Part shown: piece after piece, positions 2,621 to 11,521 of the stretch
How positions within the stretch are numbered: position 1 is the first letter of the stretch
How the letters are laid out: every line of letters starts with the position of its first letter
Origin: a virus
Taxonomy: Duplodnaviria > Heunggongvirae > Uroviricota > Caudoviricetes
Length of the DNA stretch: 11,521 bases
IMG/VR virus record: IMGVR_UViG_2657245124_000008
Direction: 5' to 3' (one strand)
Program-made: the position numbers and the translations under genes
Notes under the pieces: model-generated
The model's input: only the letters and a program-made list of their open reading frames with translations
What the model was told of the DNA's origin: nothing
Databases searched by the model: none

Positions 2621-2732
2621 AACTGAAGTTGCCCTGAAAATGAAATTTTTTTGCACAACCGCAGAACTTTTCCGCAGGGCATCAGTCTTAATTAGTGCCA
2701 CTGCTTTTCTTTGATGTCCCCATTTTGTGGAG

Positions 2733-2776
2733 CCCATCAACCCCGCCATTTCGGTTCAAGGTTGATGGGTTTTTTG
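2733..2776 (+). terminator. rho-independent terminator-like hairpin in the ybjL/prophage junction region
   Basis: Stem CCCATCAACC (2733-2742) pairs with GGTTGATGGG (2760-2769) across a 17-nt loop, followed by TTTTTTG. The T-run is on the plus strand, so this most likely terminates ybjL. The same hairpin read on the minus strand may also terminate ogr. Confidence 0.5.
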
Positions 2777-2855
2777 TTGCCTGAAATTTATGTCGTTTAA
2801 AATCATGACGTTAGAAGCACTGTTTTTTAACGATGGCGACAAAATGGCGGCAGCG

Positions 2856-3074
2856 TCAAAGAGAGAGCGCCACCTGTCCTGATTTCATTGGATGCGGCTG
2901 AACCGGATTTGACTCTTTTGGCGTTGCAATCGAACGAACAAAAGTTTCATGGGTTACAAAAGTATGGCTGCAGTTAATATTCTGGCACTGGTTGTAACGC
3001 TCTTTGGTCAATGAAGATACCTGAAAACTGCTGCGAGTATGGGCGGCACTTCCACACAGTGGGCAAATCATCAT
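2856..3074 (-). CDS. ogr: Ogr/Delta-family zinc-finger late transcription activator (about 73 aa)
   Basis: Product MMICPLCGSAAHTRSS...KERYNQCQNINCSHTF... has the Cys-x2-Cys ... Cys-x4-Cys arrangement and KERY(H/N)QCQN(V/I)NC core of P2 Ogr. The six-frame ORF extends to 3167 only because no in-frame stop intervenes. The internal ATG at 3074 aligns with the P2 Ogr N-terminus and is preceded by GGGAGA. Confidence 0.75.
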   Translation of the reverse strand: MMICPLCGSAAHTRSSFQVSSLTKERYNQCQNINCSHTFVTHETFVRSIATPKESNPVQPHPMKSGQVALSL

Positions 3075-4264: not shown

Positions 4265-4746
4265 GACAGCAGCCCTCCCACCGTTTTACTGATATCGCTT
4301 AAGGCAGACGTTGCCGTGTCCTGCAGATTATTCAGTTGCGCACTGAGATCACCGAACATATCGGACAGGGATTCATCCACTCGTTTGAGCGACAGGGTGA
4401 ACTCAATCCGGCGCGGCATACCGTCGCGGAAAAACTCCGTTTTAGTCTGATTCAGTCCCTCAATCACATACATGCCGTAAATCGTGCCGCTGCCTTCAAT
4501 CAGGGGCCATGCTTTCCCCTGTTCTGCCATCTGCTCCAGTGCCAGCAACGACAGCCTGCCGCCTGTTATCTCCGGCATAAGAACACCGGAAAGCGTCAGC
4601 ATGTCGTTTTCCGGTCCCAGAAACTGCGTGGACGGACGTCGGTTTACCCGACTGTTTGCCGCATGTCGCCAGCTGCGTTGATACTGCAGTTCCTGATACG
4701 GAACGGTGCGCAGCATAAACACGTACAATCCCAGCACCATCATCAT
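4261..4746 (-). CDS. U: P2 gpU-like tail protein (161 aa)
   Basis: 161-aa product, similar in size and sequence to P2 gpU (about 159 aa from memory). Its ATG overlaps the T stop (ATGA), indicating translational coupling. Confidence 0.85.
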   Translation of the reverse strand: MMMVLGLYVFMLRTVPYQELQYQRSWRHAANSRVNRRPSTQFLGPENDMLTLSGVLMPEITGGRLSLLALEQMAEQGKAWPLIEGSGTIYGMYVIEGLNQTKTEFFRDGMPRRIEFTLSLKRVDESLSDMFGDLSAQLNNLQDTATSALSDISKTVGGLLS

Positions 4747-7700
4747 GCGTCGTATCCCCCCTGATCGCTGTAGTTACTCCTGGCTTTTGCCTTCAGCCTG
4801 CGTTCACGTTCATCAAGCTGGCGTGCCACCTCCCGCGCAATATCCTGCGCACTTTGTCCTGGCTGCGTCTGAATGATGATCTGCGTCGGTGCCTCAATCC
4901 GTTGAACGAGCGGCACAGTGGCTGCGCGACTCACAATTGCTTCTCCACCTTTCGCGGGAAGTGCCAAAGGGTGCAACGGTGGAAGCTCTGCTGGCGCGGC
5001 AGCAACGCCCATCATTCCGGCAACAACGGCAGCCAGTGCAGCTGTATTTCTCCGGCTGGTCACATTTGCCGGGCCGTTAACAATTTCCGGCCCGTTTTCA
5101 CCGACGATGCCAAACTGCCCGCGCGGGATATACCCGCCGCTGTCATACATCCCCGCAAAGCCATATCCCCATGATGGAAAACCACCCGATGGCATCATCA
5201 CTTTGCCGTCTGCATTCACCGTCGCAGGTTGCTGACGCGTCACGCTTTCCGGTAGTTTTGCCTTTGCGGCCTCTTTACTGACAATGCCGAGTTTCTCCAG
5301 CAACCAGGAAACGCCGGATTTCAGGGAGTCCAGCGGATGCATGACCATATTCAGCCCTTCCGCCAGAGCCTCCCCGAATCGTCGCCCCATTGCCGCTGCA
5401 CTCTGCAGTTCGGCAGAGGTCGACTTAACGGGCGTCAGCAGGTCAGTAAACCAGCCCCACAGCGCCTGCACTTTGTCGCCAATCCACTGGAACACAGGCT
5501 TAAGTGGTTCGAATGCGGCACTGACGGGACCTGCCGCCGCTTTGAATCCCTCCACCACGCCACCGAGAAATGCGGTGATGGGTTGCCAGTATTTCCAGAC
5601 AACCAGCGCCACGCCTGCCAGTGCAGTAACCACTAGACCTATCGGACTGAGCAGAGCACCTAACAGACCAGATATGGCATACAGGGCAACGCGCAGCATC
5701 GCCAGTGGACCAGATGCCAGTACTCGCTGCACCGTACCTGCGGCGGTCAGTCCACCGCGCAGTACCGCCAGAGGATTCATAAACATCACAGCAACCGCAC
5801 GTAAACCGGATAATCCAGACCGCAAAAGTGCAACCGGCGCACCTGCAACAGTTTTCAGGACATTTCCCGTCAGTGATGCCGTACGGCGCAAAGACGACAA
5901 CGGCGCAGTAAGTAAACCCGCTGCGTTACCCGATAAAGCAAGCCCGTGTCGCAGCAGTGCCAGTGGTGCGCCAGCCAGCCAGGACAACGCGCTGCTGGTT
6001 CGTGTTACTGCTGCCGTAACGGAAGGTAACGTTTTGATGCCCAGCACAGAGAATCCCAGACGGATGACTGCCAGCGGCCCCAGCACTGCAGCCAGCGCCA
6101 CAGCCAAGGTGCCGAGGCCGACGGTAACCGCAGCCACAATAGCGGCTACTTTCATCAGTGTGCCCGTCAGTTCCGGGTTAGCTTCCACCCAGCGACGCAA
6201 CGCTCCCGTAACGCTTTTCACCGTGTACAGAATATCCATCAGCGGCTGGCGCAGCGTTTCGCCCAGGCTGCTGAAGGTATTCTGCGCTCCGGTTTTAACC
6301 AGCAACCACTGAGCAGAAAGTGAGTCCTTGTTGATGTCGGATTCTTTCTGCATGGAACCGAGCGCATCATTGCCCGCTGTCAGTTTTAGCTGGCGCTGTA
6401 GTTCCGGCAGGTTGTTTGCCAGTTTCGCCGCGTCATCGCCAAACTCTTTACCAAACAACATGGTCATGGCAGACAGACGCTTGTCCTGCGGCAGTGCGTT
6501 CACCTTCTCCAGCACACGCTGGATAGTTCCCATCGCATCCTTCGTCATCTGCTTTTCAATCACTTCAGGATTGAGTTTCAGCAGATTCATCCCTTCAAAG
6601 AAACTCTTGCTTTGCATGGTGGCAATGGACAATTCACGCACCATCGCGTTTGCTGCACTGGCTGCAACCTCCGGCGCAGCGCCCAGTGTCAGAAAGGTGG
6701 AACCCAGTGCCGCCGCTTTACGATAATCCAGACGGTCAGCCACACCGCCCAGACGTTGCATCACATCAATGATGTCCGCCCCTTTCGACATGGCGTTATC
6801 ATCCAGATAGTTCAGCGCATCGCCGAGCTGTTCAATATTGCGGGTAGGTATTTTGTAGAGCTGGGCGATTTTCCCCAGACTTTCTGACAGTTCATCCGCT
6901 GGCAGCTCAAAGGCTGTTGCCGCCTTTGCTGCCGTACTGGCGAAGGCCAGCAGGTCACGTTTCTGGTCTTCCCAGCTGTCGTCAGGGTCTGCGACGTTCA
7001 TGCGCGCACCACCTTCAACCAGTGCAGCGAAGTCCACCGCACCGTTTTCCATCGGCAACTGTTCGCTGGCAGCCTTGATGGCATCCTGCATTTCATAAAA
7101 ACGTGCAGTACGGTTTCCATTATCGTCACGCAGACCATTGACCTGCTTTGCCACACCTTTCATGGCATCTTCCATGCTGGTATAGCTTTTTACTGCCGCC
7201 ATCACTGGCGTCCCCATTGCCAGCCCTGCAGCCGTGGTAGTGGCTCCGGCTCCTGCAATACGATCGCGCACCTCCAGCGAACGGGCATAACTGGCACGCG
7301 CCGCATTCATCCTGCGCTGAGCTTCACCCAGTCGCTTCAGCCGCGCCTCCTGTTTCGACAATTCCTGGTTATAACGTGATGTTTCACGGGCTAAACGGGC
7401 AGTTGCTCCCGCATCATCTTTCGCAGAAATTCCCGCCCGGTACAGTTCTGCACGCACAAGCGCCGTTTGCTTCTGCAAATATTTTTGTTGTTCTTCCAGG
7501 CGTTGGACTGCCAGCGTTTGCCGACCTAAAGCCACAAGGTGCCGTTGTGATGGTTGTTCCATCGCCTCCAGCTCAGAGCTAAGCAAATTAGCCTTCTGTC
7601 TGGCATAGTTCAGCCTGTCGCCTAACTTCTTGTTATCGGCCTGCAGCTTGCGAAATTTTTCCAGGCTGTTACCCGCCTGATTGAGTTGCTTTAATGCGTC

Positions 7701-7820: not shown

Positions 7821-8249
7821 CGTTGGCCCCGCTTCTCTGAATCGCTTTATACCGCCATTCCAGCACTTCGGTCAGCGGCATAACGTCAGTAACGGATGGC
7901 GGCCAGTGAAAAATGGTGGCGATATCTGCCACCAGATCGTCAACCGTCAGGCTGTCGGTAAACCGGCAAGCACCGACTTCTTCAACAAAAAAGTGACAAC
8001 CTCAACCGACATGGCTGTGAGATCTGCCGGGTCCATCTCTGCGATTTCCTGTGCAGTCAGTGCCGGACTGGAGATGCGGGGGATCACGGTCATCATCGCG
8101 TTCACATCCATATCCATAATGGCCTGCAGGCGTGTGCCGCGCAGCGCACCAGACTGCGGTTTACGCAACACAATTTCGGTAATTTCTGTTTTACCGCGCA
8201 TGATGGGGGTATCCAGTTGAATGGTCTTTTCAGTCTGTTTATCGCTCAT
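7813..8249 (-). CDS. E+E': gpE+E' tail assembly chaperone made by programmed -1 frameshift (about 144 aa)
   Basis: Translating by hand from the slippery site in the -1 frame gives an open frame running to a TGA at 7813-7815 (…VEEVGACRFTDSLTVDDLVADIATIFHWPPSVTDVMPLTEVLEWRYKAIQRSGANDE*). It overlaps the T start codon at 7820. The total length is close to the 142 aa I recall for P2 E+E'. Confidence 0.65.
7947..8249 (-). CDS. E: tail assembly chaperone gpE (100 aa, zero-frame product)
   Basis: Small ORF between FII and T. Its 3' end contains the slippery heptamer T TTT TTG. The ATG at 8249 is preceded by an AGGAC Shine-Dalgarno-like sequence. Confidence 0.8.
   Translation of the reverse strand: MSDKQTEKTIQLDTPIMRGKTEITEIVLRKPQSGALRGTRLQAIMDMDVNAMMTVIPRISSPALTAQEIAEMDPADLTAMSVEVVTFLLKKSVLAGLPTA
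7986..7992 (-). other. -1 programmed ribosomal frameshift slippery heptamer TTTTTTG
   Basis: The minus strand reads GTC ACT TTT TTG TTG AAG (V T F L L K) in the E frame. The heptamer T TTT TTG matches the P2 E/E' and lambda G/GT-type slippery sequence. Confidence 0.7.
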
Positions 8250-8828: not shown

Positions 8829-10001
8829 TTACGCGCTGACCTGGCTGGCGAAATTCACCAGGTACTGATCGGTGATGCGCTGGCGCAGCATCAGATTTTC
8901 AAGTGGCGGCACTGGCGTGTAGTCATAGTCGATGGTGAGTTTTCCGGCTTTCAGCGTGTCTTTGTCGTTCACCGACTCATCCAGCCAGCAATCACCACCA
9001 ATGAGATACCCCTGACTGACCAGGCTGCGCATTTTGGCGCGGATACCTTCGATAATGTCGCGAGCCAGCGACGGATTCAGCGGTTTGTCCACCGCCCACA
9101 TGTGCGCTTCTGCCATCGTGTCCGTCAGTACCTGCGCGGTTCGGGTGTAGTTTTCGAAGGCAAAGAGCGGATCATCGCTCAGACAGCGGGAACCCCAGAA
9201 GCGGAAACCGTCTTTGCGGATAAGCGTGGTAACGTCGTTCTGGTTAAGCAGACCTGCATCGGTTGCCGGGTCCTGCAGATCCCAGAACACATCAGCAGAA
9301 ATTCCGGTGACACCGTTCACGCCCACGTTGGACAGGCTTTTGTGCCATCCGGTCTGCTCATCAATTTTGGCGCGCAGACCGAGCGCACGAGCAGTGGCAT
9401 ATGCCGTTGCTTCGGCATTCAGCACCGTGTCCCAGCCCGTAAAGTCAGGCCAGATCAGCATCCCTTCGCGCTGGCTGAAGTTTTCACGGTAAGTGATCGC
9501 CTCCTGTACCGTCTTGCAGCCATACGCTGACAGGTAAGCAAACCCACGCAGGCTTTGCGCCACGCTCAGCAACTCAGTCGCAACGGCTTTGTTATCGTGG
9601 CCTGGCACGCCGAGAATGCGCGGTTTAACGCCGAGCTGTGACTGGGCAGATAACAGAGCTTTCATGCCTGTTTTTTTACCTTCAGCAGTCACTGCGCCGA
9701 TGATATTGGTCGTGGTTTCTTCTTCCGTTTCACCCTGCGGCACACGCACAACAACGGTCACGGGTTTTGCCTGGTCAGCGATGGCATCCAGCGAACGGGC
9801 CAGAGTACCGGACTCACCCGCTTTACCGCCGGCAGTCAGCACATCAGTGATCAGCACGGGTTTATTAAGAGGAAACATTTTTGCATCGGCATCATCGCCC
9901 GTGCAGACCATACCCACGATGGCGGTGCTCACCGTGGTAATGGATCGGGTGCCTTCGTTGACTTCAACAACGCGCACCCCGTGGTGGTAATCCTGAGCCA
10001 T
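8829..10001 (-). CDS. FI: contractile tail sheath protein (gpFI-like, 390 aa)
   Basis: 390-aa product whose N-terminus ([19 protein letters not shown]...) and C-terminal [13 protein letters not shown] region match P2 FI from memory. An AGGAGG Shine-Dalgarno sits 9 nt upstream of the ATG at 10001. Confidence 0.9.
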
Positions 10002-10143: not shown

Positions 10144-10566
10144 TCAGGGGGATTCATTGCTCTTATTTGCCGGAAATTTTCTATACATGGTAGAAACGCC
10201 TACATCAAAAATCAGTGCAATACGCTGTCTTGATTCTCCGGCCTCGAGTAAACGCCCAATCTGTGCCCACTGTTCGGTGGTCAACTTAGGACGGCGTCCA
10301 CCTACTCTGCCTTTAGCACGAGCTGCAGCCAGCCCTGCCCTAGTACGTTCGACAATAAACTCTCGCTCCATTTCAGCCAGGGCACCCATCACATGAAAGA
10401 AGAAGCGCCCCATAGGCGTACTCGTATCGATGCTATCCGTCAGGCTCCGGAAGTTAACACCTTTCTCCCGCAGTTCCTCCACTAACCCAACAAGATGTCG
10501 CATGCTGCGACCGAGGCGGTCACGCTTTCAGACCACCAGCGTATCGCCTTCAGATATGCATCCTTG
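10144..10566 (-). pseudogene. Pin/Hin/Gin-family serine DNA invertase, N-terminally decayed
   Basis: The 119-aa ORF (10144-10503) matches the C-terminal two-thirds of Pin/Hin-type invertases (MRHLVGLVEELREKGVNFRSLTDSIDTSTPMGRFFFHVMGALAEMERE..., with the C-terminal helix-turn-helix). Upstream in the same frame, homology continues as ...EGDTLVV*KRDRLGRSM, with a TGA (10528-10530) where the conserved Trp of GDTLVVWKLDRLGRS sits. A TAG follows at 10567-10569 and no recognisable catalytic N-terminal domain is found in any frame. Confidence 0.8.
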
Positions 10567-10666
10567 CTAAACTTAGATCGCCGGTCACCAACTAAGCATG
10601 CAGTATGCGTTATGTTTTTTATTGCTCCCAGGGTAATGTGTCCACTAACTAAACAAGGAGATAGTG

Positions 10667-11218
10667 ATGCTGCATACTATGAATTTCACGGTGCCCGTAA
10701 ATCAGTCCACCGTTAACGCTTTAATTAGCAATTGCCTTGGAGCTATCAATCAGGGGGCGACTGAGTTAAACATTTACATTTCCAGTCCGGGCGGTGACCT
10801 CGTTGCAGGTTTTACTGCTTATCACTTTCTAAAGGCCCTACCAATCCCAGTAAAGACCCATAACCTTAGCAATGTTGAATCAGTCGCTAATATCATTTTT
10901 CTTGCAGGGTCTGAACGTAAGGCGAATCCTGGGAGTCGGTTCTTACTGCATCCTTTTCACTGGGGCTTGATGGGCCCAAGCGTGGATCACTCACGCGTCA
11001 GTGAGTGGGGCGCGTGTCTCAATAATGACCTGGAGCGTTTTGTCGATATTTTGGAGAGTCAGATTGAGCTCAGTAAGAGCCGCAATGAGTGGAAGGAGGT
11101 TATCTCCGCCGCCACCATAGCCAATGCCTCCACAGCTCTGGATTGGGGGATGGTTCACGAGGTTGCCGCCGCCACTTACCCGCAGGCACCCGGCACATAC
11201 TGGTGGATTAACTGTTAA
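10667..11218 (+). CDS. stand-alone ClpP-like (S14-type) serine peptidase, about 183 aa
   Basis: AAGGAG Shine-Dalgarno (10655-10660) lies 6 nt before the ATG at 10667 (the ORF track begins at an in-frame GTG at 10664). The product aligns by eye to the ClpP core: IYISSPGG versus ClpP YINSPGG, Ser72 in ESVAN versus ClpP GQAASMG, and His95 in LLHP versus ClpP MIHQP. It lacks the ClpP N-terminal axial segment and is oriented against the late operon. Confidence 0.7.
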   Translation: MLHTMNFTVPVNQSTVNALISNCLGAINQGATELNIYISSPGGDLVAGFTAYHFLKALPIPVKTHNLSNVESVANIIFLAGSERKANPGSRFLLHPFHWGLMGPSVDHSRVSEWGACLNNDLERFVDILESQIELSKSRNEWKEVISAATIANASTALDWGMVHEVAAATYPQAPGTYWWINC

Positions 11219-11377
11219 CATAATTACCTCTCAAATTTAAATTGGGCAGAGATGCCAGCATCCAGGCTCGCGCCTGGACGATTGTCTGATGATGAAAAGT
11301 GCAGTTTAATCTGTGGCTGGATTATCTGGATGCACTGGAGCTGGTTAATACCTCCAGTGCGCCAGATATTGAATGGC

Positions 11378-11521
11378 CTACTCCTCCGGCAGTTCAGGCC
11401 AGATGACATCCGGTGCGGTGCTGGTATCTGTTGCCGTCACAGCGTCGATATAATCCAGCACAACGTTAAGTCGGGTAGTTTCTTCTTGCGTCAGTTTGCG
11501 CCCGGCCTGCAGCTTTAACTG
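11378..11521 (-). CDS. tail fibre assembly protein (gpG/Tfa-like), C-terminal 47 codons; gene continues beyond the window
   Basis: The minus-strand frame entering from the window edge is open and reads ...RKLTQEETTRLNVVLDYIDAVTATDTSTAPDVIWPELPEE, ending at a TAG (11378-11380). This resembles the conserved C-terminus of tail-fibre-assembly proteins (…D.S.AP.I.WP..P), and the position matches gene G in P2 order. Confidence 0.55.
   Translation of the reverse strand, partial: QLKLQAGRKLTQEETTRLNVVLDYIDAVTATDTSTAPDVIWPELPEE

Follow-up and report, generated by a model that had tools for sequence, protein, structure and literature searches.

A gene for a ClpP-like serine peptidase, carried by a P2-like prophage, was analysed in an 11,521-nucleotide (nt) stretch of DNA from a virus record of the Caudoviricetes (IMG/VR IMGVR_UViG_2657245124_000008). 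This whole stretch is referred to below as the window. It originates from Escherichia coli 1297KP, and the P2-like context agrees with the RefSeq annotation of that genome. The genes grxA, ybjM and ybjL and the small RNA gene rybB are followed by the prophage, whose late genes ogr, D, U, T, E/E+E', FII and FI (start codon at 10001) are all located on the minus strand, as are tfa and H on the other side of the ClpP-like gene. The ClpP-like gene itself is transcribed from the plus strand and has a GC content of 0.45-0.48, compared with 0.55-0.57 in FI. The features of the locus are collected in Table 1.

Table 1. Positions of the ClpP-like gene, its sequence elements and the surrounding features in the window
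Feature	Position	Strand	Basis or remark
ClpP-like coding sequence, 183 amino acids, N-terminally truncated	10667-11218 (including stop)	+	List of open reading frames, Pfam, family alignment, AlphaFold2/Foldseek
Ribosome-binding site AAGGAG	10655-10660	+	Sequence reading; 6 nt 5' of the ATG
Codon 72 (TCA), catalytic Ser72	10880-10882	+	Invariant in 40 homologues; aligns with S73 of PDB 9UXT
Codon 95 (CAT), catalytic His95	10949-10951	+	Invariant in 40 homologues; aligns with H96 of 9UXT
Codon of Thr150, canonical triad Asp position	11114-11116	+	Gapless alignment to 9UXT (Pro151 there)
C-terminal WWINC motif, residues 179-183	11201-11215	+	WW[VI]x[C] conserved in the prophage-borne clade
Minimal mobile cassette (gene, 62 nt 5' and 36 nt 3')	10605-11254	+	87.6% identity with the prophage end of E. 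coli 100416
Replacement region	10550-11300		751 nt substitute for 1023 nt of L024
Block common to other E. coli backbones	10261-11521, on to ~12031		93% over 1.78 kb with the dacD-adjacent prophage
DNA invertase pseudogene	10144-10557	-	RefSeq, Pfam (Resolvase C-terminal part and HTH_7), comparison with the L024 invertase
tfa' remnant (inverted tail-fibre-assembly gene), frameshifted	11270-11406	+	RefSeq; homology to the tfa'/tfa junction of L024
Active-orientation tail-fibre-assembly gene (tfa), 3' part, running past the window	11378-11521	-	RefSeq, L001 15379-15729
ogr	2856-3074	-	Late gene of the prophage
rybB	2700-2778	+	Rfam RF00110, 105 bits

The ClpP-like gene and its protein family

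The open reading frame (ORF) was listed from a GTG codon at 10664 to 11218, and the ATG at 10667 gives a protein of 183 amino acids (aa). The ribosome-binding site in front of this ATG is kept in the homologous gene of E. coli 100416, and AAGGAG or GGAG variants of it were found in other contexts. The ORF is thus intact, strongly equipped for translation and antisense to the late tail operon, just as a preliminary description made from the letters of the window had it.

Membership of the Pfam family CLP_protease (PF00574) was established with an E-value of 1.1e-12 and 48.7 bits against a gathering cut-off of 20.2. Residues 7-168 of the protein matched model positions 21-180, and because the match begins only at model position 21, the protein lacks the N-terminal portion of the domain. 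In the PRK00277 model, the window protein starts at position 39. The score against TIGR00493 was 27.7, the cut-off being 308.6, and the other ClpP equivalog and subfamily models gave scores likewise far below their cut-offs. Since all NCBIfam ClpP equivalog models were missed by such a wide margin, the name given to the ORF by RefSeq, "ATP-dependent Clp protease proteolytic subunit", is over-specific and the product is not a housekeeping ClpP. With canonical ClpP (MEROPS S14; E. coli ClpP, TIGR00493) it has in common the fold with its handle helix, the positions of the Ser and His residues and the SxxGG motif. It differs in the absence of ~20-38 N-terminal model residues, in having no catalytic Asp and in having no linkage to clpX. 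The missing N-terminal segment comprises the axial loops and the alpha-A helix, which serve gating and the docking of ClpX/ClpA.

A word-indexed search returned 58 relatives of ~180 aa from E. coli, Enterobacter, Citrobacter, Klebsiella, Pantoea, Serratia, Proteus, Leclercia, Rahnella and Chromobacterium. A family alignment was made of 40 of them, sharing 28-90% identity with the window protein. Residues S39, G42, G43, S72, R84, H95 and E113 were invariant in this alignment, and with them the motif S39-x-x-G42-G43 (SxxGG). The third triad position was characterised by the consensus [AST]-T-I and was never occupied by an acidic residue. The C-terminus had the form WW[VI]x[C] in the prophage-borne clade versus QWSVH(A) or SWCIH(S) in Pseudomonadaceae. 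Searching 1.8 billion cluster representatives exhaustively with HMMER revealed 615 clusters at E <= 1e-10 and just 6 at E <= 1e-30. Most of the clusters listed had ~180-200 aa, which makes the short stand-alone ClpP-like proteins a broad group. One Klebsiella cluster representative (P0040; L010-L013 8001-8717) was called as a protein of 238 aa. The family alignment puts its start at MIHTVHF, which gives ~186 aa and means that the database model probably extends too far on the 5' side.

The AlphaFold2 model of the window protein had a mean predicted local distance difference test score (pLDDT) of 93.2 and a predicted template-modelling (TM) score of 0.89. It contained a long handle helix at residues 108-132, and a terminal beta-strand was predicted at residues 177-181, overlapping the WWINC motif. 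The top Foldseek match in the PDB was 9uxt_A, with a TM score of 0.93, a root-mean-square deviation of 1.7 Å over 181 columns and 40% identity. Canonical ClpPs came next (TM ~0.82), and chains of 4ryf were also among the matches (TM 0.84). In the structure search of BFVD, the closest viral relative was 23% identical at most. The predicted fold is that of the ClpP head and handle, with a Ser72-His95 pair and no axial N-terminus. The placement of Ser72 and His95 at ClpP-equivalent positions, the S14/ClpP fold (TM 0.82-0.93 to solved ClpPs), the lack of the N-terminal axial region and the peculiar Trp/Cys-containing tail had all been anticipated in the preliminary description, as had the exclusion of a housekeeping function, and each of these points was borne out; the tail turned out to be a conserved trait of the prophage-borne clade.

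Prophage contexts and the rearranged tail-fibre locus

Every enterobacterial homologue examined, and one from Chromobacterium, was a single gene in an accessory slot of a prophage, in ~10 contexts altogether, and in nearly all of them the gene stood alone on the strand opposite to its neighbours (convergent or antisense). In the P2-like prophage of E. coli 1297KP, the gene is located between FI and the tail-fibre genes (FI/H). In P2-like prophages of Enterobacter (83% aa identity) and of E. coli PO06101 and N2512, the tail operon has the other orientation and the gene is found between U and tfa. Further E. coli carriers are a dacD-adjacent myovirus prophage and Mu/e14-like prophages, including that of E. 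coli 100416, where the gene adjoins DinI and the UmuD homologue HumD. In the P22-like phage phiv205-1 it occupies the immI region. In the lambda-like PhiR12 (Escherichia phage PhiR12_5) it belongs to an arc/ant/mnt-like/ClpP-like module inserted between the tail genes L and K. The lambdoid prophages of Klebsiella carry it between Rz/Rz1 and the small terminase gene, and that of Proteus between N and erf/ssb. In the Chromobacterium myovirus its neighbours are the tail fibre on one side and the lysis genes on the other, with umuDC-like genes not far away (a few genes), and in Pantoea it is part of a Mu-like tail module.

The matches obtained in phage protein libraries raised the question of a virion morphogenesis protease, engaged in prohead maturation or in tail-fibre processing. 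The top sequence matches there were head maturation proteases (phrog_94, E = 6e-27; NF045542, E = 4.5e-13), which belong to the same fold class, and the gene is often found beside tail-fibre genes. The NF045542 score of 49.5 bits, however, stayed far below the cut-off of 120, and the window protein has no C-terminal scaffold or capsid-targeting extension. The P2-like prophage possesses its own scaffold/protease, GPO, and related phages manage without the ClpP-like gene. No homologue adjoining portal or capsid genes in a head operon was found among the contexts examined; the gene lay outside the head module, mostly antisense or convergent to structural genes, and its slot varied with the type of phage. 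On the grounds of context and the sub-threshold score this candidate function was rejected, in line with the preliminary description, and the probability left to it is very small, as the contexts largely refute it.

In related P2-like prophages, FI and H are separated by an invertase system or by tfa, with no ClpP-like gene. The gene therefore deserves the term moron, as had been proposed earlier: it is a single gene present in ~10 prophage contexts and absent from close relatives. Like classical morons and the cargo of the P2 Z/fun locus, it is an extra gene amid conserved late genes, mostly on the opposite strand, lower in GC and exchanged between unrelated phages. Unlike them, in the window it was inserted within a wrecked invertible tail-fibre segment and not between intact genes. 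A close parallel comes from Salmonella, where the sopE cassette has been transferred between phages of the P2-like and lambda-like types.

The history of the locus could be read from a comparison with other P2-like prophages. About 700 of the 5426 complete E. coli genomes contain a P2-like prophage with a recombinase gene next to FI, and in other P2-like relatives tfa directly follows FI. One prophage of the former type, L024, was looked at in detail. It encodes an intact invertase of 188 aa (L024 5295-5861), beside which lies a 2-kb invertible segment. Inverted repeats of 27 nt and of the TTCTCCCAAACC type (5917-5943 and 7889-7915) flank this segment, which comprises the silent tail-fibre tip, tfa', tfa and the active tip. 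Homology between the window and this arrangement ends at 10549 and restarts at 11301. The replacement took away the left crossover site and the silent tip ORF, together with the 5' 161 nt of the invertase gene and the greater part of tfa'. What remained of the invertase is a pseudogene that has lost the N-terminus with the catalytic Ser and contains an internal stop, and comparison with L024 showed that the inverted-repeat pair is gone from the window. With the left repeat deleted and the invertase a pseudogene, the tail-fibre switch is frozen in one orientation. The active-orientation tfa (extending to ~11728) is flagged by RefSeq as incomplete, its N-terminus missing. This prophage may lack the capacity to produce functional tail fibres.

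The view of the FI-G locus taken in the preliminary description needs correction: the lineage normally has an invertase and an invertible segment there, a system destroyed here by the replacement. Moreover, the FI-adjacent position in a P2-like prophage was found in only 1 (1297KP) of the 26 E. coli genomes, out of 5426, that carry the gene.

The extent of the transferred DNA was delimited by two comparisons. The cassette listed in Table 1 is taken as the minimal one because it is the sole stretch common to the window and the unrelated prophage of E. coli 100416. The much longer block shared with other E. coli backbones includes tfa and the last ~245 nt of the tail-fibre gene H. A module consisting of the invertase remnant, the ClpP-like gene and tfa fragments occurs in at least 4 E. 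coli prophage backbones, with an identity of 99.7-99.9% over 10560-11260. The presence of the module in these backbones, together with the shared flanking block, indicates that recombination within the invertase and tail-fibre sequences on either side has spread it as a passenger of the host-range block. Cargo, as this locus illustrates, can travel with tail-fibre host-range blocks, here with the invertase switch destroyed in the exchange.

Such surroundings also invited the explanation that the gene is functionless debris, carried along with tail-fibre and invertase wreckage. Its neighbours are indeed pseudogenes (the truncated invertase and frameshifted tfa fragments), there is no clear promoter in the window, and in one strain the length differs by 1 nt and the ORF is annotated as shorter. 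Against this, the ratio of nonsynonymous to synonymous substitution rates (dN/dS) was 0.097 in the pairwise comparison with a homologue of 89% aa identity and 0.060 with one of 83%, catalytic and structural residues are invariant across homologues that are 28-90% identical, the length of ~180 aa is kept in many independent contexts, and the ribosome-binding site in the window is strong. Debris was rejected on account of the dN/dS values and the conservation, and hardly any likelihood remains for it. Among the E. coli carriers, the ORF is annotated as full-length and non-pseudogene in 25 of 26 genomes. The ClpP-like gene is real and selectively maintained. Taking the prophage contexts, dN/dS and GC together, it is a functional, mobile moron, and neither a morphogenesis gene nor debris.

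In the strain with the length difference, E. coli PO06101 (L028 3678-4160), the cassette is 1 nt longer and the ORF is annotated from a later start, giving 160 aa; the difference may represent an inactivating frameshift in that strain. The Rfam scan of the window detected RybB alone, which is unrelated to the ClpP-like gene. As the RybB gene is situated 78 nt from ogr, the prophage has integrated directly downstream of rybB, next to ybjL.

Resemblance to PpClpP1 and possible roles in the lysogen

The closest characterised relative of the window protein is ClpP1 of Pseudomonas plecoglossicida (PpClpP1, PDB 9UXT). The alignment of the two proteins is near-gapless (E = 1.3e-37 with the single sequence and 6.7e-51 with the family profile), and their identity amounts to 40% by structure alignment and to roughly 48% over the N-terminal 140 residues by hand count. 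Cryo-electron microscopy of PpClpP1 was reported to show a homotetradecamer with an axial pore of 42.7 Å and without N-terminal loops or helix (PMC12900304). Its triad was described as "Ser73-His96-Pro151", in which Ser, as tested by mutagenesis, and His were reported to be indispensable and the third residue dispensable. The peptidase activity of PpClpP1 was ~13-fold below that of the canonical paralogue, and on its own it did not bind ClpX; together with canonical ClpP it formed a stable heterotetradecamer, which was more active and driven by ClpX. Growth and motility phenotypes were also reported, and phages are not mentioned in that paper (PMC12900304).

Both proteins have 183 aa, lack the axial loops and the alpha-A helix, carry Ser and His at the same positions and have a non-acidic third residue. 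They differ in that the third position is Pro in PpClpP1 and Thr in the window protein, and in the C-terminus, which reads QWSVH in PpClpP1 and WW[VI]xC in the prophage clade. PpClpP1 and the Pseudomonadaceae homologues examined are chromosomal and located outside prophages, whereas the window gene is prophage cargo. PpClpP1 is known by biochemistry, and the prophage clade is known here from sequence and, for the window protein, from a predicted monomer model. A prophage-borne setting for this known type of truncated ClpP paralogue is new.

The possibility that PpClpP1 itself is prophage cargo was considered and rejected, as the Pseudomonas and Azotobacter loci examined were ordinary chromosome. 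The PpClpP1-type gene was found there near small general-stress genes, KGG and CsbD (L014 7693-7902; L017 8560-8751; L018 9362-9553). This neighbourhood hints at a stress-related role of the chromosomal clade, a topic not discussed in the PpClpP1 paper.

Partner-ring paralogues of non-canonical type offer a further comparison. ClpP1 of Listeria monocytogenes (heterocomplex PDB 4RYF) has a divergent triad, is weak alone and becomes active in mixed tetradecamers, as reported for PpClpP1. Paralogues of this type are chromosomal and about full length, while the partnership of the window protein with host ClpP would be deduced by analogy.

On these grounds, the preferred reading, held with evenly balanced confidence, is that the moron encodes a PpClpP1-type ClpP paralogue acting together with host ClpP in the lysogen. 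By homology to PpClpP1, the window protein would assemble into heptameric rings or tetradecamers with a wide, ungated pore. Alone, it would be expected to be a weak peptidase incapable of docking ClpX or ClpA. Its most likely mode of action would be co-assembly with the canonical ClpP of the host into mixed tetradecamers, which could retune ClpXP/ClpAP-dependent proteolysis in the lysogen. The pay-off might be the exclusion of other phages or control over lysogeny and SOS factors. In the window, the cassette replaced the 5' end of the invertase gene and the silent arm, and it has since spread through recombination in the flanking sequences.

Such a role presupposes expression from the prophage. 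In phiv205-1 and PhiR12, the ATG of the ClpP-like gene overlaps the stop codon (TAATG) of an 82-aa Arc/Mnt-like ribbon-helix-helix ORF, which diverges from arc and a P22-type antirepressor gene. Lysogens of P22 express mnt, a gene of the immI region. The coupling seen between the ClpP-like gene and an mnt-like ORF in these two phages points to expression during lysogeny, and by this analogy the ClpP-like gene is probably expressed from the prophage in the lysogen. The immI-like module of these phages, comprising the P22-type antirepressor, small ORFs, the Arc/Mnt-like ORF and the ClpP-like gene, spans 4351-6537 in phiv205-1 (L003) and 4525-6537 in PhiR12_5 (L004). Its occurrence in the normal P22-like position in the former and in the L/K gap in the latter shows that the whole regulatory cassette moved into the tail operon.

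Several observations weigh against the preferred reading. The promoter scan of the window revealed no convincing sigma-70 match upstream of the ClpP-like gene, and the terminator scan found no clear intrinsic terminator 3' of it, only a weak hairpin; in five other contexts, terminator-like hairpins are present after the gene. The idea of co-assembly with E. coli ClpP is an extrapolation from one publication on a Pseudomonas protein of 40% identity. Because of the distinct WWxxC C-terminus and the Thr in place of Pro at the third position, the behaviour of the prophage clade could differ. Finally, the gene is rare in E. coli, as the count of 26 carriers among 5426 genomes indicates.

A second explanation, judged rather unlikely, is that the product is a dedicated single-gene protease of anti-phage defence or superinfection exclusion, which, when expressed from the prophage, would cleave a protein of the incoming phage or a host factor that the phage needs and thereby shield the lysogen. 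The P2 Z/fun locus was reported to be the second defence-enriched hotspot of P2-like phages (PMC9519451), and it was also characterised as a site of mixed purpose, where tail fibres are swapped and invertases are frequent (bioRxiv 10.1101/2024.10.15.618418). The statement in the preliminary description that this slot holds defence cargo thus agrees with the literature. The other slots also match known sites of exclusion or defence genes (the neighbourhood of immI/sieA in P22, the N-proximal region of lambda and the position after the lysis cassette), the gene is highly mobile between unrelated prophages, and it is under purifying selection. In principle, phage proteins ejected in an unfolded state could be degraded by a chamber with a wide pore and no gate.

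However, the search of PADLOC-DB v2 gave 0 families at E <= 1, and ClpP was sought without success in the P2 hotspot papers checked and in those supplements of Rousset et al. that could be searched, the only similar names being zf-C4_ClpX and CLP1_P. Nothing relevant was found in the literature on ClpP-like genes in prophages, in anti-phage defence or as morons. Neither a sensor nor a partner gene accompanies the ClpP-like gene, those homologues of the Pseudomonadaceae that were examined are chromosomal and adjacent to general-stress genes, and the phenotypes of PpClpP1 concern growth and motility. Its adjacency to tail-fibre genes is accounted for by hitch-hiking with the host-range block. 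The defence role put forward in the preliminary description accordingly stays a conjecture from location. The analogy with Lit drawn there did not hold at the structural level. Lit is a zinc metalloprotease (HExxH) that is activated by a phage peptide and cleaves EF-Tu, whereas no HExxH is present in the 183-aa sequence, the fold of which is that of ClpP. PpClpP1, of which the preliminary description makes no mention, points to another mechanism, namely the partnership with host ClpP.

A third explanation assumes a modulator of lysogeny or induction: the protease, alone or with host ClpP, would tune the stability of a regulator such as an antirepressor, repressor fragments or SOS factors of the UmuD/DinI type, and prophage induction would thereby be stabilised or timed. 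It is suggested by the translational coupling to the Arc/Mnt-like repressor ORF beside a P22-type antirepressor gene in two active phages, by the position next to DinI and HumD in E. coli 100416, and by the proximity of umuDC-like genes in Chromobacterium. During induction in other systems, repressor fragments are processed by ClpXP (PMC10584840). Most contexts, though, namely the P2-like prophages, the Mu-like tail modules and the Klebsiella lambdoids, have no regulator nearby, and the adjacency to SOS genes is limited to two cases, which may reflect chance clustering of accessory genes at prophage ends. This explanation was considered improbable.

Returning to the partnership with host ClpP, a broader form of it was also formulated, in a tentative and doubtful way. 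The gene could be a portable single-gene effector of temperate phages of several morphotypes, which either plugs into the host ClpP core or acts alone as an open-pore chamber, destroying proteins of competing phages or rewiring the ClpXP control of lysogeny. If true, prophages would possess a hitherto unrecognised type of module for proteolytic immunity or host takeover.

Many regulators of phages and of the SOS response are under the control of ClpXP and ClpAP, and a ClpP subunit supplied by a prophage would be a simple route to altered host proteolysis. The family is conserved, mobile, under strong purifying selection and located in the usual exclusion and defence slots, yet it is absent from PADLOC, the one defence database searched, and named as ordinary ClpP in RefSeq. 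With the Pseudomonas homologue, whose structure was solved recently, a specific hypothesis is at hand that is amenable to mutagenesis.

The prophage of E. coli 1297KP has a further accessory gene beyond the window. At the cos-proximal hotspot (L001 28748-29522), it encodes the ATP-dependent nuclease WP_057698812. As this protein is listed in Rousset et al., the same prophage carries candidate defence cargo at its main hotspot.

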